From a virus (lineage: Duplodnaviria > Heunggongvirae > Uroviricota > Caudoviricetes), in the IMG/VR virus record IMGVR_UViG_2627853910_000005: a DNA stretch of 39,175 nucleotides; one strand, 5' to 3'. The position numbers and the translations under genes are program-made. The notes under the pieces were generated by a model. The model worked only from the letters and a program-made list of their open reading frames with translations, had not been told where the DNA came from and did no database searches. Below are positions 551 through 30,676 of the stretch, piece by piece. Within the stretch, counting starts at the first letter, position 1. Each line of letters starts with the position of its first letter.

Positions 551-1141
551 ATGTCTCGAATTTTTGCTTACTGTCGGATATCAACGCTGGATCAGACCAC
601 CGAAAATCAACGCCGGGAAATCGAAAGTGCAGGTTTTAAAATCAAACCTCAGCAAATAATCGAAGAACACATTAGCGGCTCAGCAGCAACCAGTGAGCGT
701 CCTGGTTTTAACCGGTTGCTTGCTCGCCTGAAATGTGGTGATCAATTGATTGTGACAAAACTGGATCGCCTTGGTTGTAATGCAATGGATATCAGGAAAA
801 CAGTGGAACAACTGACCGAAACAGGTATCAGAGTGCATTGCTTAGCATTGGGGGGCATTGACCTGACCAGTCCAACAGGAAAAATGATGATGCACGTAAT
901 TTCAGCAGTCGCTGAATTTGAACGAGACCTTTTACTTGAACGCACTCATTCCGGGATAGTAAGAGCCCGCGGCGCAGGGAAACGTTTTGGTCGACCACCT
1001 GTGTTAAATGAAGAACAGAAACAGGTGGTATTCGAACGAATTAAGTCAGGTGTAAGTATAAGTGCCATTGCCCGGGAATTCAAAACCTCGCGGCAAACCA
1101 TTTTAAGAGCCAAAGCAAAACTTCAGACACCTGACATATAA
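551..1141 (+). CDS. pin: Serine recombinase, Pin/Gin/Hin-family DNA invertase
   Basis: 196 aa. N-terminal catalytic region [15 protein letters not shown] with the serine nucleophile and resolvase-type core; C-terminal HTH ([18 protein letters not shown]). Essentially matches my recollection of E. coli Pin. Confidence 0.92.
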
Positions 1142-1368
1142 AAAATAATCTCGGTGTGAGATGCTTTACGTCTTCCAAGCCCCCTTCCTTGCCGTAAATG
1201 GAAAGATACATCTAATTATAGAATTTATATGTTTTACCCTACGGCAGTGCTGGCCATTCAATATCCTGTGCAGTTGACGTATCAACACGGTTCAGCAACA
1301 CCCGATACTTCTTCCAGGCTTCCAGCAACGAGGTTTCTTCCTCCGTTGCATATACAGCTCACCTTTTT

Positions 1369-2386: not shown

Positions 2387-2668
2387 TCACATCCAGCCAC
2401 GAAGTTGATGTTCAACTACAACCGCGTATTCATCGAATATTAACGATTTTTTTGCATCATTAATGATGCGCACGTTTACAAAATATCCATCTTCCTTAAC
2501 ACATACCGGTTCGCCATCTTCAGTCAGTTCTCCGGTTTCTTTGTACACGTTACCTATCACGTCAATAAGAATATCATCCTGCATCGACTCGTCATCATAA
2601 TAGCCAATGCTATCCATAAAGGCCGAAAAGTCGGCCCTGTCTGCAAATTTGAGTGTTAAATCTTTCAT
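2387..2668 (-). CDS. Hypothetical acidic protein (93 aa), translationally coupled to the side tail fibre gene
   Basis: Its ATG overlaps the stf stop codon (TAATG). Acidic composition. No recognisable domain. Confidence 0.4.
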   Translation of the reverse strand: MKDLTLKFADRADFSAFMDSIGYYDDESMQDDILIDVIGNVYKETGELTEDGEPVCVKEDGYFVNVRIINDAKKSLIFDEYAVVVEHQLRGWM

Positions 2669-5045
2669 TAGATTGACTCCCCCATCTGAGCATCAGTCAA
2701 TGCCTTGTGCCATATTCTGAAATTCCTGACATGACCAAATAAATGACGCAACCCGGCTGTAGTCTGGCCTCCAATACGGATAATTGCGGAGTTCTGAATA
2801 TAGGACCATGTGGCTTTCTTTTCGCTAGATATACGCCCGTTACTTACTGAGCACGTAGACTGATCTGACTTTACACGCATCCCCATAACCATTTTTTCAA
2901 GCGATGCGTTTTCGTTTACCCGTCTGTTAGCCAAACCTATATCACAATAAGGAAATCCGTCGTAATCTGTTGAACGACCGAAGCCAAGAATAATAGCCGC
3001 TCCGGTTTGATGACCGCCGGTATCAAAAACACGCGGTGCTGCATTTGGCGTTTTATACCAGTTCTTATGTACCTCACAAAGAACCGTAAAAGGAAGATTA
3101 TAAAGGTTATTCTTGATTGGGACTGTCACCATATCGCTTGCGCGAGTGCTTGCAGTTATATCAGTTACAATAAATGACGAAGCACTTGATCCACCTTCCA
3201 CTTGTGGAGTTGCGATATCCAGATAGTCTCCAGATGCTGTACCTGAACCTTTTACAGGAGCGTATTGAACCATCGCACCAATCATGCTCTCTGTATCTAG
3301 TGCATTAATTGTAGCCTGATAGAAAATCCAACCAGTAACCTCATCTTTTACAGCCTTTGCAATAATACGGTCTGCAGCAGTACCAGTTTTATCAATTACA
3401 AGTGTTGATAAATTGAGGTAAGCATCTCCCAAAAAAGTGTAAGTATAACCATCATGGTGTTCAAATCTTAAACGACACCTTATATTTTCAACATCACTTC
3501 TTACACGGCATGAAATGGTCACATATTTTTCATCACCTGTGACATCAAACCCTTTACTGCCAGAAATCGTTACGATATTAATAGCACTTGTCTGACCAAT
3601 AAGAGTATCTTTTACAGTAAATCTCCCATAAGTAAAATTAAAAGAATCCGTGGATATTTCTGTGAGTTCCAGATTGCCTGACTTATTCCATTTAGATGGA
3701 TTTGTTGAATTAAGCAGAAGATTAGTTCTTTGCCCCTCAATAAGCAGGCCATCACGTTCAAATCGTGGCTCATCAATGGCAGCCTCTGTCAGCACACCAG
3801 ATTTGTTAATATAGGTTGCTTTCGATGCACGTTTAAACTTAACAATCTTGTCGCCAGGCATCGTTATTTCGTCGTCACCAATAACAATCTTTTTATATGA
3901 TGGCAAAAAGCCCGTAATCATATCCAGTGAATCGTTAAACGGTATCCACACATCAGGCAGCGGCTGTAAGACATATTTATACGGATCTGCTGCCTGGCTT
4001 GCATACTCTCTGGCTGCGTCTTCACTTGCTTTTGCAGCGGTCTGGCTTGCAGCGGATGCTTTCGCCGAGTTCGCCGCTGCAGTCTCGCTTGTCTTTGCAT
4101 TGGTTTCACTGGTTTTTGCTGCTTTTTGACTGTTGGCTGATGCAGTGGCAGAAGCAGCCGCCGCGCTTGCAGAACCAGCTGCAGCACTCTCGCTTTGGGC
4201 TGCTGCATCCTGACTGTTTTTCGCCGCAGTTTCGCTGGCTTTGGCATTCGTTTCGCTGGTCTTCGCTGCCGTCTGGCTGGACTTTGCGTTAGTTTCACTC
4301 GTCTTCGCAGCTTTCTGGCTGTTAGCCGCAGCAGTTGCTGATCCAGCTGCTGAAGTCGCAGAACCGGCTGCCGCGCTCTCGCTTTGGGCTGCTGCAACCT
4401 GGCTGTTTTTTGCCGCAGTTTCACTGGCTTTGGCATTCGTTTCGCTTGTTTTCGCTGCCGTCTGGCTGGACTTTGCGTTGGTTTCGCTCGTCTTTGCGGC
4501 TGTCTCGCTATTTTTCGCGTTGGTTTCTGATTTTTGGCTGCTGTCGCGGAGTTTGCCGATGCAGTCTGCGAGGACGCTGCCGCCTGTGCGCTGTTAGCTG
4601 CATTTGTTTCTGAGGTTTTCGCCGCGTTCTTCGATGATGCCGCTGCAGTTTCGGATTTCTTTGCCGCTGCTGCGCTCTGAGAGGCGGCTTCGGCGTTGCG
4701 TGCCGCTTCTTCCACCATTGCCTCAAAACGACGCAATGCCTCCGGCATGACATCATCTTCCGTCATGGCACCGAGAAAATCATTCAGCGTACCTGGTCTG
4801 GAACCTTCATAGACGGTAATGGTCCCGGCATGTGAAGGCGGAAAACCTTCAACCAGCAGGGTGACGCTGTACTGACCATACTCAACATCCATGCTGTAAC
4901 GCCCGGCTTCATCCGGATTTTCAGAGGCCACCGTGTTCACCAGTACCGTGGTGCTGTTACGCTTTGCCTTCAGTTGAATAGTGCAGTTCTGTATTGGTTT
5001 TCCCGCACCATCTTTCAGCACACCTGAGATTTTTACTGCTGCCAT
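2668..5045 (-). pseudogene. stf: Side tail fibre (Stf) gene interrupted by a single-base frameshift
   Basis: The first ~160 aa match the lambda Stf N-terminus (MAAVKISGVLKDGAGKPIQNCTIQLKA...), followed by Ala/Ser/Thr-rich AAKTSETNA-type repeats. The frame breaks at an A5 run (plus-strand T5 at 4531-4535) and the sensible translation continues in another frame to a concanavalin/LamG-like C-terminal tip (RHLFGHVRNFRIWHKALTDAQM). One extra A would restore a continuous protein of about 792 aa. Confidence 0.7.
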
Positions 5046-5054
5046 ATCCACTCC

Positions 5055-5083
5055 ACAAAAAAGCCCGCCTGAACCGGCGGGCT
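5055..5083 (-). terminator. Rho-independent terminator after lom
   Basis: On the minus strand: AGCCCGCC-loop-GGCGGGCT stem followed by TTTTTTG. Lies between the lom stop (5110) and the stf start (5045). Confidence 0.5.
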
Positions 5084-5109: not shown

Positions 5110-5709
5110 TCAGAACTTATAACCGACACCCACGATGAAACCGTCAGTGCGCCAGTCGCCACTGCCGGAGCCTTCATAAGCAATATCAATGGCCACGGAT
5201 TCGGTCGGGTTAAACTGCACGCCAGCCCCCCACGCCAGAGACGTGTTGCTGTGGCGACCGTCATCACTTCCGGTCAGCACATCGTGCTTTTTCCCCTTGT
5301 TGTCAGTTACGCGAAGATAATCCCCGGAGAAAGTCGACACACGGCTGTAAGCTACACCCGCCATCGCATACGCGCTGAACCATTCATTCACGCGCACAGA
5401 CGGCCCCGCCATTACGCTGAACCAGCGGTTACGAACGGAATCTTCATGCCAGCGGGTATCGCTGTAACGGGTCAGCTGGCGATTCTTGTCTCCTGCATAG
5501 CTGAATGACGTCACCAGCCCCAGTGTGTCCGTAAACTCATAACGGTATTTCACGTTAATCCCGTTCAGATCATCACTGCCGGGGACGTTCGTCGAGGCAT
5601 GAAGATACCCCGCGCTCAGCGTGGACTGATGTTCAGACGCCCATGCAGGCGCACCGGATACGGCCAGACAAATGGCTGCGGACAAAATGGCTGCACAAAC
5701 TTTACGCAT
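5110..5709 (-). CDS. lom: Outer membrane protein Lom (Ail/Lom family)
   Basis: 199 aa with signal peptide. Near-identical to my recollection of lambda Lom (MRK.CAAILSAAICLAVSGAPAWASEHQSTLSAGYLH...GFIVGVGYKF). Confidence 0.93.
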   Translation of the reverse strand: MRKVCAAILSAAICLAVSGAPAWASEHQSTLSAGYLHASTNVPGSDDLNGINVKYRYEFTDTLGLVTSFSYAGDKNRQLTRYSDTRWHEDSVRNRWFSVMAGPSVRVNEWFSAYAMAGVAYSRVSTFSGDYLRVTDNKGKKHDVLTGSDDGRHSNTSLAWGAGVQFNPTESVAIDIAYEGSGSGDWRTDGFIVGVGYKF

Positions 5710-5776
5710 AATTACCTCTCGCTTTTCTGCAATAAAAAAGGCGCCATTTCTGGCGCCCGTATATGGGTTATAAAAT

Positions 5777-8700
5777 TCAGCTGATACTGATGCCTGCGGT
5801 GGCTTTCTTCATCACCACAACCAGCAAATCGCTGATACTTGCTGTGGGATACCAGTCATTTACCAGCCATGCTGACACCGAAAACTCCAGCGTCATGTGA
5901 CCGTGACCGGCAGGCATATCAATAACGCCACTGTAAATCAGCGTATTATCCAGCGCGGTACGGTTATAAATTTCAGCACCGTTTTTCCGCACTATCAGAC
6001 GGCATGAGGAGTAAATATCAGTATGCTCTCTCTCATGTTTAGCGCCGCTGAATGCCACCGCAGGAATAACAATCTGCCGGTCAAACGGCTGATCGTCATA
6101 AACCCTGACGGTAATGGTCCCTGATGGCCACCGTTCCGGTGCACGGGAGTCCCGGGGGAAAGCTTTGCCCACTGTTTTAACGAGATCGCCTTCAATCTGG
6201 TTCGCGGACAGTTTTCCCAGAACCCGACAGTTCTCGTTAATCGTGACGTTGTTGAGCGTCCCGGAGTTCGCATTCACGTTACCGCTGATATCGGCATTTT
6301 TCGCCGTCAGCCGCCCATCCGGTGTCAGGGAAAATGCCGGAGGATTACCGCCGCTGGTAATGGTCGGAGCCGTCAGGCGTTTCAGGAACACGTCGTTCAT
6401 GAATATCTGATCGCCCTGACCAACAAACATTGGTCTTGTGTTGCCATTAGACGGATCAATAAACGCGATACGGTTAGCGGCAACCAGGAACTGGCTCAGT
6501 TTGCCTTCCTCCGTGTCCTCCATGCTGAGGCCAATACCCGCGACATAATGTTTGCCGTCTTTGGTCTGCTCAATTTTGACGCCCCACATGGCATTCCACT
6601 TATCACTGGCGTCCTTCCACTCTTTCGAAAACTCCTCCAGTTTGCTGGCGTTATCCTCCGTCAGCTCGACTTTTTCCAGCAGCTCCTTGCCAAGATGGGA
6701 TTCGGTTATCTGGCCTTTGAAAAAATCCAGGTAACCTTCCGCATCATCGCTCGCCCGACCAACAGCCTCCACGAATGCCGATTTGCCAACGGTGTTCACA
6801 CTGCGAACGTAAAAATAATAATCATGGCCCGGCCTGATATTGATACTGGCAGCTATCCAGTACAGCGCCGTGCCAAGATAGCGGGCTGTGGTTTCAACCT
6901 GCCTGATATCCGCAATCCGTTTTTCCGAGAACCAGAACTCAAACTGTACCGTCGGGTCATAAACCGCAAGATGTGGCGTGGCGGTTATCTGAAAATAGCC
7001 CGGTGTCAGCTCAATCCGAGACGGCGCTGCCGGTGCGGCAATCCGGAACGATACCGATGCCGGATCGCCCTGCAGCCCCCACGCATTTACCGCCCGGACC
7101 GTCAGCATGTAACGCCCCAGCGCCAGTTGCGTGAAGCGGTATGTGGTTTCCGTCGTCCGGGCCGTGCTGACCAGCCGCTCACTGCCGTCATCCGCTGCCA
7201 CGGTCAGGCGAAGCAGGAAGCTCACGCCCTTCACCACTTTCGGCGTGTCCCAGCGGGCCAGCACCTGATATTCCCCGCTGTCTGCGGTGACTTCGGCAGT
7301 CAGGTGCTGCACCGCTGGCGGCGTGACACCATTCACCGTGCCGCTCTGGTCGCCGTCAAAGTGCGCCCCGTTATCCACGATGGCCTCTTTCTCCGGTACA
7401 TGCTGCACGGCAGTGATGGCATACGTGCCGTCGTCGTTCTCACGGATACTCACGCAGCGGAACAGGCGCTGGCGCAACGTCGGCAACTTCAGCCCCCACA
7501 CGCTGTATTCAGCAACGCCGTCAGGAACACGGCTCACTTTCACCTTCACGCCGTCGGTGACGGACTGGACCTCCACGCTGACCGGATTACCCTCACCGTC
7601 AACCAGGCTTATCAGCGTGGTGCCGGAGGATGGCAGCGTGATTTCACGGTCGAGCGTCAGCGTCCGGGTCTGGCTGTTCACCGCCAGCACGCGACCACCG
7701 ATGCTGATACCGGCATAGTCATCATCGCAGATTTCAATAACATCGCCCGGCACATGGCGAAGCCCTTCTGCGCCCACGCTGAAATCCACGGTCTGCGTTT
7801 CCAGCAGTTCCGTTTTAATCAGCCACAGCCCGGCTCGGTGTGCCTGCCCCCGACTGGTACAACCAAAGGCATCCATCTTCGTGACATTACGACCGTAACG
7901 GGCAATGGCCTGCGTATCTTCAACAAGCTCTGTCGCCGTCTCCCAGCCGTTGTTCGGGTCAATCCAGTTCACCTCAACGGCATTATGGCGGTCCTTCAGG
8001 GCGCTGAAGCTGTAGCGGAACGGCGCGCCATCATCCGGCATCACCACATTACTGCGGTTATAGGTCCACACCTTATCCGACTGTCGGTCCTGCACGAACG
8101 TCAGCGTCTGCCCGTTCCATACCGGCATACAGCGCATCGCCGAGCAGAAATCACTGAGCACATCCCACGCCTTGCGCTGTGTGGTCAGGTAAGCGTTACA
8201 GGTGATGCGCGGCTCCGTGCCGCCAAAGCCGTCCGGCACCGACTGGTCGCAATTCTGGCCGATGACATACAGCGCCCATTTATCCACATCCGCCGCACCA
8301 AGACGTTTCCCCATGCCGTAGCGCGGATGGGTCAGCATATCCCACAGACACCAGGCCATGTTGTTGCTGTATGCCGGTTTTAACGTTCCGTCCCAGATAC
8401 CGCTGTATTGCCGCGTCTGCGGGTTATAGTTCGACGGCACCTGCAGAATGCGCCCGCGAAGATGATAATTACGGCTCACCTGCTGGCTGCCGAACTGCTC
8501 CGAGTCCACCTGCACGCCAACCAGTGCCGTGTTCGGGTAGCACTGTTTCACATCGATGATTTCGGTGTATGACGACCAGAGCGTTTTGTTCTGCAGCTGG
8601 TCTGTGGTGCTGTCCGGCGTCATCCTGCGCATCCGGATATTAAACGGGCGCGGCGGCAGGTTATCCACCACCACCGAGGCCAGATACTGCGAGGTGGTTT

Positions 8701-9172
8701 TGCCCTTAATGGTGATGTCTTTTTCCGTCACCCAGCCACCGTTACGCTGTATCTGAACCAGCAGGCGGACTTCCGATGGATTCCTGTCCCCCTTTGAGGT
8801 GGTTTCCACCAGTGCCTGCACACCGAAGGTAAAGCGCAGACGGTCGATGTTTGCCGACGTGATGGTGCGGGTGATCGGCGTGTCATATTTCACTTCCGTA
8901 CCCAGCACCGTCTCGGAGCCGGAGGATTCAAATCCCTCCGGCGGTGTCTGCTCCTGTTCACCTGCCCGGAACACCACCGTGACGCCGGAGATGTTGGTAT
9001 TCCCCTCAGTGTCCAGCACTGGCGTACTGTTCAGCAGCACGCTTTTTAATCCATCCACCGGACCTTCAATCGGCCCTTCGCTGATGGCATCGATCACACT
9101 CAGCAACTGCGTGGACTTCAGGTTGTCCTTCGCTTCGCGCGGAGTATGCCCCTTACTGCTGCCTTTACCCAT
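5777..9172 (-). CDS. J: Tail tip / host specificity protein J
   Basis: Collinear with lambda J along its full length, from [18 protein letters not shown] at the internal ATG at 9170-9172 to the C-terminal receptor-binding region. The track ORF starts earlier at a GTG (9217) that has no SD. Confidence 0.93.
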
Positions 9173-26824: not shown

Positions 26825-27634
26825 TCAATGAACGGTATCGAGCAGCTTTAACAGCTCAGGGAATCGGGATTCGAAGAAATGCGGCTGCGTCTCGCGCGGA
26901 TTTGCAGGACTGGTGATGTTCTTGCCGAACATGCAGCCTTTCGCCGTCAGCGACCAGAATTTTTTGATGTTGTTAATCGCGGTACGGCTGTATCGTTCGC
27001 GTTGTTCAACGATCCCCAGCGTCACCATCTGGTGATATGCCTGATTAGCCGTCAGGCGGATACCATACTGCCTCAGCAGTGCACTCAGCGACAGCGTGGG
27101 GCGACTTGAGCCATCGTGTGCATCAGCAGGAGCATCAATGGCATAGCGCGGTGCCAGATTCGGTAAGCCAACAGCCTCCTGGAGTTTCTGGCAGGCACCA
27201 AGCACTGAAGAGTTAGACAGGTTTAATTCCCGGCGCATAAAGTCCAGCAGAATCACACCAGCCTGCATCTTGTCAGCAGCCTGTCCGGATAATTTTTCCG
27301 GTGCGCTGGTTACCATGTCGAAAGTACGGATCACCTTCAGATGGAATGACGGGCTGATCCACATTGCATAGGCATACACCAGTTCTTTGCAGACATACGT
27401 TCCCCGTTCATTTCCCCCATGAATCACACTCACCGGGTCAACACCCAAATTCTGGGTGTTGGTCAATTCATGAACAAGTTCAACAGTTTGTTGGCTGGAA
27501 AGAAACTTTCCTGGCTCCTTGGTTCTGGCATTTGCACCAGATGCTACTGCTGCGCGATGCAGATCGTTCAGGCTGTAACGCCCATAAGCATCACGACGAA
27601 CTTCAATACCATCAATGACCATCAGATTATTCAT
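26825..27634 (-). CDS. KilA-N domain protein (antirepressor-like)
   Basis: N-terminal MVIDGIEVRRDAYGRYSLNDLHRAA...GTYVCKELVYAYAMWISPSFHLKV matches the KilA-N signature. ATG with SD AGGAG. Confidence 0.7.
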   Translation of the reverse strand: MNNLMVIDGIEVRRDAYGRYSLNDLHRAAVASGANARTKEPGKFLSSQQTVELVHELTNTQNLGVDPVSVIHGGNERGTYVCKELVYAYAMWISPSFHLKVIRTFDMVTSAPEKLSGQAADKMQAGVILLDFMRRELNLSNSSVLGACQKLQEAVGLPNLAPRYAIDAPADAHDGSSRPTLSLSALLRQYGIRLTANQAYHQMVTLGIVEQRERYSRTAINNIKKFWSLTAKGCMFGKNITSPANPRETQPHFFESRFPELLKLLDTVH

Positions 27635-27653
27635 ACTTCGTTTCTCCTCTTGA

Positions 27654-28043
27654 TCAGGCGGCTGCACCCGCCGTTTTCTCGTACTTACTGATAGTGATCT
27701 CGACCTTCCCTTCCGGGATAACCGGTCCCCACTCCACCAGCATTCTTTTCACCTGACTGTCGTCTTCCCACACACCCGCGTGGGTCAGGGCGTCAAACAG
27801 CGCCTTGTTATAGTTGTCCAGATCGCGGATCCGGTTATCCGGAGGAAACAACACAATCTCCACTGAAGCAGGTGCCGACGTTGGTTTTGGCAGACGACGT
27901 AACTGCTCAACTATTGCTGCACACGCCGCGCTCTGGAATTTGCGCCCCGCCGCGCTTATCAGGCTCTTACCAGCAAACGCCCCTTTGTTGGGGTGTCGCC
28001 AGTACGTGTTCACGCTGGGCGGAAAAGGCAGGATCAGCTTCAT
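27654..28043 (-). CDS. rusA: Holliday junction resolvase RusA
   Basis: 129 aa; MKLILPFPPSVNTYW...RIRDLDNYNKALFDALTHAGVWEDDSQV is a RusA signature. Confidence 0.85.
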   Translation of the reverse strand: MKLILPFPPSVNTYWRHPNKGAFAGKSLISAAGRKFQSAACAAIVEQLRRLPKPTSAPASVEIVLFPPDNRIRDLDNYNKALFDALTHAGVWEDDSQVKRMLVEWGPVIPEGKVEITISKYEKTAGAAA

Positions 28044-28693
28044 GCCACCATCTCCCTGACCAGTTTTTCTGCCTGCTGGCGAACCTGCGCCAGAAAGGCC
28101 TCACCACATGCCTCAAGTTCATCGCGCCCGATGTAGCTGATTGCCGGTCCCTTCCAGGTCTTGTCAAAAACAGCAATAGCACCAGCGAAGAAAGCGCCTG
28201 TCGGCACCTGCTTCTCATCTTTCGGGATAAACCAGGCAGGCAGTTCAAAACCAATACGCCCGCGAATAAAAGCAATATGGTCCGCATCTTCCGGCCACCA
28301 CACTTCGCTGGTGGCAGCTTTGATCAGGAAAACATAGCGCCCGCCCTTATCACGCATGGCACTGGCATGTTTCATGATGTAACGCATGCCGGTGATGTAT
28401 TGCCCCTCATGCTGACTGGCGCGACTGTATGGGGGATTGCCAAAGGCAGCACCTTTAAGCTCCGCAAGGCGTTCTGACCAGTCATGCGCCAGCGCGTTGT
28501 CTTCCGCCGTGTAATACGCGGCACATTTGGCGTTATCACCGTCAGTGAACAGATCCAGAACAAACGGGCCAAACAAGGTGTTAATTCCCCAGAAAATGCT
28601 GTCCGGCGTGCGCCACTGATCGCCCACCTCCTTCAGTTCATGGGATGGTTTGTTCCGCAGCTCCACCAGCGCCTGACAATATTTATTACTCAT
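28040..28693 (-). CDS. Phage N6-adenine DNA methyltransferase (Dam-like)
   Basis: 217 aa with an FGNPPYS catalytic motif (NPPY). Stop overlaps the rusA start. Confidence 0.8.
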   Translation of the reverse strand: MSNKYCQALVELRNKPSHELKEVGDQWRTPDSIFWGINTLFGPFVLDLFTDGDNAKCAAYYTAEDNALAHDWSERLAELKGAAFGNPPYSRASQHEGQYITGMRYIMKHASAMRDKGGRYVFLIKAATSEVWWPEDADHIAFIRGRIGFELPAWFIPKDEKQVPTGAFFAGAIAVFDKTWKGPAISYIGRDELEACGEAFLAQVRQQAEKLVREMVA

Positions 28694-28787
28694 TAAGCCC
28701 CCACGTAAAAAGCATCCGCAATGTCTCCGGAAGTACACCCCGGATGGGCTTCAATGAATTTCTGAACTTCATTCAAAAGACTCATGA

Positions 28788-29780
28788 TCACCCCCTGAAT
28801 CCTGCCGGGATCTGGCTGTAGTCCACGTTGTCGTAACTGGCTTTGAAGTACGGATCTTCGCGTTTTTCTGTGTACGTGCTGACGGACGGCGATAAGCGCA
28901 GGGAAAGCTCATCCCATTTTTCCCGCAGCTTCGACGGGCTGAGCACGTTACGGCACCAGAACGGATCGCGGCTGACGCGGCTGTACATCTCGCAGATTTG
29001 TTTGTGAGTACGCCCATCCTGTACACACATCAGGCGAATTTCGTTTGCCCAGGCTGTCCAGTTCGGTTCTTTAGGACGTACCACTTCGCCGTCACATTCG
29101 GCGGCCTGCTCGTACAGAGCGATGATTTTTTTCCAGAGCCACTGTGCGCAGGTCAAATCATCCTGCGTTCCCCACTGGCGCTTTTTAGGGCTGAATACAA
29201 CCGCATCAGGATGGCGAGTTAAAAAATCCTGTTCAGCCATCTGCGTGTCCGGTTGCGAAGCGTCCGGACGAGAAGAGGTTTTATTCTCTGTAGTAATCTC
29301 TGTTGTATTCTCTGTAAGATCATTGGGCCATTTTGACCCGATGACAGCGTGTCGTTTTGAACCAATGGATCGTGTCATTTTGCGCTCATCCATCAGGTCA
29401 CTTTGACCCGATGGAGAAGTGCATTTTGACCTGATGGATTCGTTCACTTTGACCTCTTCTAAAAGCTCACTTTCATAGTTGATCGTGTAGAAGTTGGTCA
29501 TGTCACGCTTCGATTTATTGAGTTGCTCGCGACGCAAAACCCCAAGTGATTTCAGGCTTGCAAATGTGCGTTTCAGAGTGGACTCTGACCAGAACGGAAA
29601 CTGCTCCAGCCACTGTTCTGTCGTGTTATAAACCCAGCGAATTCCGCCATGCTCAGTGCCTGAATTCGTTTCATTCAGCCAGTAATGAAGCTGCTGCAAC
29701 ACAATTGCCTCATTCAGACCAATACGGCATGCAAGATCACGATTTATCACAATGGGCTGGGATGTCATTAACAGGCTCAT
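28788..29780 (-). CDS. Replication initiator (lambda O-like N-terminal domain) carrying the origin
   Basis: N-terminal winged-helix region (IVINRDLACRIGLNEAIVLQQLHYWLNE...). A Thr/Glu-rich linker is encoded by the iteron block; C-terminal domain of unknown type. SD AGAGGT upstream. Confidence 0.7.
   Translation of the reverse strand: MSLLMTSQPIVINRDLACRIGLNEAIVLQQLHYWLNETNSGTEHGGIRWVYNTTEQWLEQFPFWSESTLKRTFASLKSLGVLRREQLNKSKRDMTNFYTINYESELLEEVKVNESIRSKCTSPSGQSDLMDERKMTRSIGSKRHAVIGSKWPNDLTENTTEITTENKTSSRPDASQPDTQMAEQDFLTRHPDAVVFSPKKRQWGTQDDLTCAQWLWKKIIALYEQAAECDGEVVRPKEPNWTAWANEIRLMCVQDGRTHKQICEMYSRVSRDPFWCRNVLSPSKLREKWDELSLRLSPSVSTYTEKREDPYFKASYDNVDYSQIPAGFRG
29285..29459. repeat. Candidate origin of replication: iterons plus short periodic repeats inside the initiator gene
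   Basis: Six direct repeats of consensus yCAyTTTGACCyGATGG at about 23-bp spacing (starts near 29329, 29353, 29377, 29399, 29422, 29445), adjacent to three 12-bp TCTCTG-containing repeats (29285, 29297, 29309). Confidence 0.6.
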
Positions 29781-29789
29781 GACCGACCT

Positions 29790-30128
29790 CTATTTCCCTG
29801 AATTTACGACGAAACTGTTCGAGCGGACTGAAGCATTCATGTTCATAGCCTTCACGGAGGTAGATAACCCGTTGTGTTTCCGGCTCCCAACGAATGACTC
29901 TGACGGGCACTCCGTAGTGATCTTTGAACCAGCGGTTAACTTGTCGCAAAGGACTGTCTCCTTCTGCCGGTTGAAATCACCCACAGCCCACTCTGCAAAG
30001 CTGTGGGTTACAATTTCCCTATCACCTGGTACATTCACTGCATAGCAATACTCCACCTTCGCTTTTCCACCCGGTACAGGAAGCGCAATCAGTTGCGAAC
30101 GACGGTAGTGTGTTGTTAAACTGTTCAT
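29790..30128 (-). CDS. Hypothetical protein (112 aa)
   Basis: ATG overlaps the stop of the upstream 183-aa gene (ATGA). The C-terminal half overlaps a protein-like ORF in another frame (29737-29949), so the true product is uncertain. Confidence 0.4.
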
Positions 30129-30676
30129 GCGTTAGTTTCTCCACAGACACAAAACGCCACGACGCCCGGAGCTGCACACTCGCGGGCGTCACTCTTTTCT
30201 GGAACGCAGAAAATTTTGTAGACCAGTGCCGCATGTTCCTGGAGCTTCGAAATCGACAGATACAACTCATCATTAATTGCTGTCTGCTCATGTGGCTCCA
30301 CTACCCCGTCTTCGATTGCCGAACGAATCTGCTTTGAGTAACTCCCGATCTGTTCAATAACTTCCAGTAGACGTTGGTTGATATCAGCGTTCTCTACTTC
30401 CTCAATTTCTGGAAGTGATACAAACACCCCACCAGCAGACTGTGCGACAGCATCCGCAATGTAGTGAGTGCCAGCAGCACGCTGTAAAATCATTGCCCAT
30501 CCCAGCGGGAAAATCTGATCGCCATCTGCACGAAGGCGGTTGAATAAAGCGTTCTCTGTTACATCCAGCCACTCAGCAGCTTCAGCGTACCCCCCCGGCA
30601 ACGCCGCGATAGTTTTTCTGACAGCTTTCACGTACCACTCAGGCTGTTTTTCCACTTTCCAGTGATGATTACCCAC
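30125..30676 (-). CDS. Hypothetical protein in the cII position (possibly YdaT-like)
   Basis: 183 aa. GTG start with a strong SD (AGGAGGT). Immediately follows the Cro-like gene. The family assignment is a guess from position. Confidence 0.45.

Follow-up and report, generated by a model that had tools for sequence, protein, structure and literature searches.

The window, the whole 39,175-nucleotide stretch of DNA analysed here, carries an E. coli prophage with a side tail fibre gene, stf, on its minus strand. Upstream of stf lie gpJ, the tail tip attachment protein gene (5777–9172, minus strand), and, directly adjoining stf, lom, which encodes an Ail/Lom outer-membrane protein (5110–5709, minus strand). 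Since J, lom and then stf follow one another on the same strand, stf occupies a lambda-like late-operon position. The upstream signals, read from the sequence (5051–5083, minus strand), consist of the lom terminator, a G+C-rich hairpin and T-run after lom (about 5057–5083), and a GGAG at 5051–5054. The GGAG is located five bases 5' of an ATG at 5045, and the same ATG is used as the stf start in the annotation of Escherichia coli S88.

Downstream of stf, the genes between 1369 and 2668 (all minus strand) are arranged identically to those of S88: a 93-aa ORF (2387–2668), a 234-aa S74-peptidase tail-fibre C-terminal fragment (1673–2377) and a 97-aa ORF (1369–1662). The 234-aa ORF is the counterpart of just the last ~230 residues of fibres that are 1,385 aa long (phrog_3299 positions 1147–1384) and gives a weak match to the S74 intramolecular-chaperone peptidase. 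Flanked by the conserved small 93-aa and 97-aa ORFs, it has the appearance of an alternative fibre tip left behind. Further along, a Pin/Hin-type serine invertase (551–1141, plus strand) adjoins a truncated tfa remnant (1239–1349, minus strand), which is also annotated in S88 at the equivalent position; the invertase and the remnant are probably the relic of an invertible fibre-tip segment.

The N-terminal part of Stf is that of a lambda-type side tail fibre, as the first-pass annotation had proposed for both the gene and its N-terminus. Residues 3–132 (4650–5039, minus strand) match the Prophage tail fibre N-terminal domain PF08400 with an E-value of 1e-66 (223 bits against a cut-off of 26.6), and residues 3–95 match the N-terminal chain of Ur-lambda Stf (9e7m_Ta, E 7.7e-49). 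In the Ur-lambda virion, the gpStf N-terminal domain is present as a 12-copy collar at the tail tip (PMC12617516). Behind this domain, an Ala/Ser/Lys/Thr-rich shaft spans residues about 110–365, counted in the protein with its reading frame repaired as described below. Repeat analysis resolves the shaft into a 189-bp (63-aa) unit present in 2.3 copies (4075–4509, minus strand), with 21-bp (7-aa) AKTSETN-type sub-repeats that reach up to 4527. The shaft region (3848–4760) also holds several stop-free frames on both strands, including ORFs of 82–118 aa and a 203-codon out-of-frame run after the frameshift site. These are a compositional effect of the GCN/AAR/ACN/AGY/GAA repeats and not evidence for overlapping genes.

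The distal part of Stf contains a central beta-sandwich domain at residues 435–636 of the repaired protein (3139–3744, minus strand), which matches the NCBIfam model NF048003, 'phage head spike fiber domain' (GTA_spike_fiber), with 58.6 bits against a cut-off of 36. An AlphaFold2 model of the distal ORF, built on an alignment of 30 sequences that are all at least 67% identical to the query, is confident only for this part, residues 82–258 of that ORF, which are predicted to form a beta-sandwich. In a Foldseek search against the PDB, the best matches were Pseudomonas phage Pa193/E217 baseplate/tail-fibre chains, and generic (carbohydrate-binding) beta-sandwiches were found as well. The last ~50 residues (...IRIGGQTTAGLRHLFGHVRNFRIWHKALTDAQMGESI; 2671–2820, minus strand) give a weak, sub-threshold Laminin_G_3-like match (E 0.03–0.05). 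At a relaxed threshold, PF13385 scored 14–15 bits against a cut-off of 27.6 and aligned over profile positions 100–149 only. The model has a pLDDT below 35 over the last 170 residues and is unreliable at the tip. The LamG/concanavalin-like tip suggested earlier is thus best read as a hint: a Laminin_G_3 match is there, but it falls short of the gathering score.

The stf reading frame is split within a short run of A residues that covers codons 171–173. The minus strand at this site reads ...GCG ACA GCA GCC AAA AAT CAG AAA CCA ACG..., with five A residues (A5; TTTTT on the plus strand, 4531–4535) where orthologues have six (A6). As encoded, the 5' ORF runs from the ATG at 5045 to a stop at 3918 (3918–5045, minus strand) and specifies 375 aa. 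Residues 1–172 of this product are authentic Stf, ending ...SATAAK(172). From residue 173 the product continues with N and then 202 residues out of frame (QKPTRKIARQ...), a tail that is rich in Arg, Lys and Gln with a pI of about 12. The PF08400 domain lies upstream of the frameshift and so is still encoded. The authentic rest of stf, residues 174–792 and the stop codon, lies in the −1 frame (2668–4530, minus strand), which after the A-run reads (K)SETNAKNSETAAKTSETNAK... and is open through to the stop at 2668. The earliest start codon in this frame is a GTG at 3951, which leaves no independent initiation close to the break. No continuous ORF in the window unites the attachment domain, the shaft and the receptor-binding tip, the frame being split at A5, and the window's stf as sequenced is a pseudogene of the lambda-type side tail fibre family.

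Adding one A to the run in silico gives a 792-codon ORF from 5045 to 2668 with zero internal stops. Its translation is, residue for residue, WP_000741761.1, the intact stf product of E. coli S88 and APEC O1, so the continuation of the frame is not due to chance. S88 reads AAAAAA at the equivalent site, and stf in S88, APEC O1 and 13TMH22 is intact, 2,379 bp long and A6. The frames and the S88 sequence therefore confirm two earlier proposals, that a one-base frameshift in an A-run splits stf and that a single extra A restores the 792-aa ORF. We also looked for orthologues in which two genuinely separate genes occupy this position, and found none among the close orthologues examined, which are single 2,379-bp genes.

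WP_000741761.1 (S88, APEC O1, 13TMH22 and others) is annotated as a 'prophage tail fiber N-terminal domain-containing protein' and belongs to PHROG 1419, which spans the whole Stf protein from end to end. Its locus has the same order as the window: J, lom, stf, the 93-aa ORF, the S74 fragment and pin. Against it, the window has A5 and not A6, an ORF in 375-aa and distal pieces, and a prophage that lacks 5.5 kb of head and tail genes.

S88 and APEC O1 carry a prophage at the yjjG/prfC site, and the late region of the window matches it at 99.97% identity. Over 27.4 kb, the window and S88 differ by 20 substitutions and by exactly one indel, which is the A5/A6 difference. Homopolymers of at least 5 nt number 151 in this comparison and only the A5 site differs; the other 140 runs of 5–6 nt and all ten runs of 7–8 nt are the same as in S88. 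With a single differing homopolymer among 151, the assembly is not riddled with homopolymer errors. Genomes of the same lineage are closer still. Over 8,380 bp, the prfC–osmY flank among them, 13TMH22 (NZ_CP019256.1) aligns to the window with a single gap and no mismatch, and the branch between the window's source and 13TMH22 carries 0 substitutions in 14.4 kb. CPww7 (NZ_CP075716.1) aligns over 11,239 bp without a gap and mismatches at 2 positions. Compared with these two genomes there is no gap other than the A-run in about 20 kb, and about 45 kb of comparison with the closest genomes shows no second indel. The flanking core genes have normal lengths. This near-identity to same-lineage genomes implies that the A5 change is either very recent or not real.

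The early/immunity region (27427–39175) is mosaic: it is 94–98% identical or unrelated to S88, and 99.98% identical to CPww7. The prophage is thus a composite in which the late region is S88-like and the early region is not. The window's integrase is present in six other genomes, CPww7 included. Adjoining it is a gene for a 531-aa cytidine/dCMP-deaminase-domain protein (36189–37784, plus strand). This gene is also conserved in other carriers of the integrase, CPww7 among them. The protein matches the PADLOC 'dCTPase' model with an E-value of 1e-164, and on this match to a dCTP deaminase anti-phage defence the prophage carries a defence gene.

Comparison with the S88 and APEC O1 genomes also reveals a 5,520-bp deletion, private to the window, with its junction at 15574/15575. 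One end falls within the portal gene and the other within the major tail protein gene, and only 2 bp of microhomology are found where they join. The deletion takes out most of the portal gene, the head-tail connector genes, the protease/capsid fusion and the gpU-family tail terminator gene, and it extends into the major tail (tube) gene. A search for this junction returned no match in any complete E. coli genome. With the portal, capsid and tail-tube genes gone, the prophage is defective regardless of stf: it cannot form virions, whether or not the fibre is made, and a fibre would have no particle to sit on. Because the deletion removes essential virion genes, selection on stf is relaxed.

13TMH22 carries a different and much larger deletion (locus 5742–6003), which joins the window equivalents of 27373 and 5046 and brings a truncated KilA-N gene directly up against the base that precedes the ATG of stf. 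The lysis, head and tail genes are all gone from that prophage, while an intact A6 stf and the genes downstream of it are kept. From their matching feature lists, CPww7 and EC02 apparently share this larger deletion.

To determine how often the A-run varies in length, we took a census with queries of 41–43 nt in which every 28-nt megablast seed was forced to span the run, so that each match reports a tract length. Among 5,426 complete E. coli genomes, A6 was found in 2,882 copies in 1,816 genomes and A5 in 4 copies in 4 genomes, while a search for A7 returned zero copies. Among 50,697 phage records, A6 was found in 17, each annotated as one continuous fibre gene, and A5 was absent. Taken together, these counts indicate that the tract is stable in nature. 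The four A5 cases each lie on a different stf allele. Three of them come from assemblies that also carry a 'frameshifted' flag on nearby genes (J, lom or other tail genes), one of these with further obvious miscalls within 40 nt; Ec-050-T5-MAC is the only case that looks otherwise clean. An exact 75-nt match to the window's A5 site was found in 0 of the 5,426 complete genomes. In an index of 153 billion gene positions, a single contig encodes the 375-aa product, CP009578.1 (GCA_000765435.1), and this contig matches the window at 100%. The A5 change is private to this one assembly. Such confinement is what would be expected of an ordinary pseudogene or a sequencing error and not of an on/off switch.

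Our preferred reading, to which we assign a probability of roughly one half, is that one A was truly lost from the A6 tract of an ordinary lambda-type stf as a private and recent mutation. We infer that the base is absent from the DNA itself and not just from the assembly. In its favour, the A-run is a lone indel among close relatives, the longer homopolymers agree, the flanking core genes are intact and the prophage is decaying; moreover, a one-base homopolymer contraction is the commonest type of spontaneous frameshift. Laboratory lambda, whose own stf is frameshifted, provides a direct precedent (PMC12617516). On this account, the 5.5-kb deletion would predate the frameshift and stf would then have been under no selection. 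Replication slippage probably removed one A at codons 171–173. The product would consist of the N-terminal attachment domain, about 40 shaft residues and 203 out-of-frame residues, and the shaft repeats and receptor-binding distal domains would no longer be joined to the N-terminal domain. The frameshift would have had no further phenotypic effect in a prophage that was already dead. Against a real mutation stands the absence of substitutions from the 14.4 kb compared with 13TMH22, since few real mutations are expected on so extremely short a branch.

The same short branch lends weight to a sequencing or assembly artefact, in which the strain has A6 and an intact 792-aa stf and the deposited sequence is one base short. 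We regard this as a serious contender with a chance somewhat under even. A one-base homopolymer undercall is a classic error of 454, PacBio and Nanopore assemblies. The A5 allele and its product occur in a single assembly, the 75-nt site has no exact counterpart in the complete genomes, and 13TMH22 is otherwise identical through the chromosomal flank. Three of the four other A5 alleles sit in visibly error-laden assemblies. RefSeq does not list the source assembly among its complete genomes, perhaps because of doubts about its quality. However, an artefact would have to be the only indel in about 45 kb against relatives, and the agreement of all other runs with S88, the ten of 7–8 nt among them, is not what an assembly prone to homopolymer noise would show. 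Over this length of sequence, the expected counts of real indels and of residual errors are comparable, at a few tenths for either.

The first-pass annotation had also raised the possibility of a slippage-prone tract, in which A5/A6 slippage would act as a phase-variable contingency switch turning the side fibre off and on. A mononucleotide run does lie within the coding region, and the five A5 alleles, counting the window's, lie on different stf backgrounds, so that a contraction has been recorded more than once. However, the census runs overwhelmingly to A6 in both the genomes and the phages, and most of the few A5 cases seem to stem from assembly error. The tract-length polymorphism among related strains or copies that marks a contingency locus was not found. 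The mononucleotide tracts of known contingency loci are typically 7–8 nt or more, and a run of 5–6 nt is shorter than these. Finally, a prophage without portal, capsid and tail-tube genes cannot build a virion, and there is nothing to switch. We therefore rejected phase variation on the tract-length census of genomes and phages, and regard such a switch as very unlikely.

A related proposal is that slippage recurs at the A6 tract of the first shaft repeat in this widespread stf family, so that this hot spot would act as a low-frequency contingency site and time and again deprive lambdoid prophages of their side fibres. If true, slippage there would remove a surface-recognition function or free the lysogen from fibre-dependent costs; we give this proposal scant credence.

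Recoding, in which full-length Stf would be made from the A5 sequence via −1 ribosomal frameshifting or transcriptional slippage, was rejected as extremely unlikely. The needed shift is indeed −1, the site offers AAA AAU, and lambda-type tail operons use −1 frameshifting elsewhere, in G/GT, but the frame-0 heptamer C_AAA_AAU is not of the canonical X_XXY_YYZ form (the P-site codon after a −1 slip being CAA). The 100 nt downstream hold no notable structure: their MFE is −15.6 kcal/mol, which 18 of 200 shuffles equal or better (z = −1.48). Transcriptional slippage needs a run of about 8–9 or more, far longer than A5, and the out-of-frame layout occurs in none of the orthologues examined, nearly all being in frame with A6.

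A lesion of this kind is already known, and what the window holds is a known gene that has either become a pseudogene or been miscalled. The stf gene is intact in Ur-lambda and frameshifted in laboratory lambda (lambda PaPa), which as a result has no side fibres (PMC12617516). The window resembles lambda in its homologous N-terminal collar domain, in a locus downstream of J and lom, and in the frameshift lesion. In contrast, the shaft repeats are different, and the frameshift lies elsewhere, in another stf allele. We found in the window neither a lambda/T4 gp37-like tip nor a downstream Tfa chaperone: the distal part is instead the NF048003-matching, GTA-spike-fibre-type beta-sandwich with a possible LamG-like end, whereas lambda has an unrelated T4 gp37-like tip, and no intact Tfa chaperone gene follows stf, unlike in lambda. 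Laboratory lambda is also a viable phage, which the window's prophage is not.

The distal ~420-residue domain is common to lateral fibres of Dhillonvirus and T5-like phages (among them vB_EcoS_swan01, KurtStettler and Salmonella phage vB_Si_CECAV_FGS017), with 72–92% DNA identity and 75–95% protein identity. These fibres differ in their N-terminal attachment domains and phage backbones, and their genes are intact. Hundreds of database entries of 416–433 aa (among them P0097, P0101, P0077 and P0007) consist of the distal domain alone and start at an internal Met (MITGF...). Given this start, they look like calls downstream of disruptions and not like true separate genes. A lookup of the 416-aa C-terminal-only homologue P0097, for separate distal genes elsewhere, returned no record. 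Several window matches in complete E. coli genomes fall under no annotated CDS.

For annotation, the locus should be labelled a frameshifted stf pseudogene, or amended should reads show A6, and the prophage defective, with a 5.5-kb head/tail deletion; beyond annotation, the significance is little. The approach may be of use elsewhere, as a tract-length census over thousands of genomes with seeds that span the run provides a read-free test of homopolymer frameshifts and can tell a variable tract from a private change. For the family, the distal-only entries suggest that upstream disruption or truncation of stf is frequent in other genomes of E. coli and Salmonella. If the loss of the base is real, the cell could produce no more of Stf than the N-terminal collar domain with a basic nonsense tail attached, and the receptor-binding part of the fibre would be left with neither a start codon near the break nor an attachment domain.
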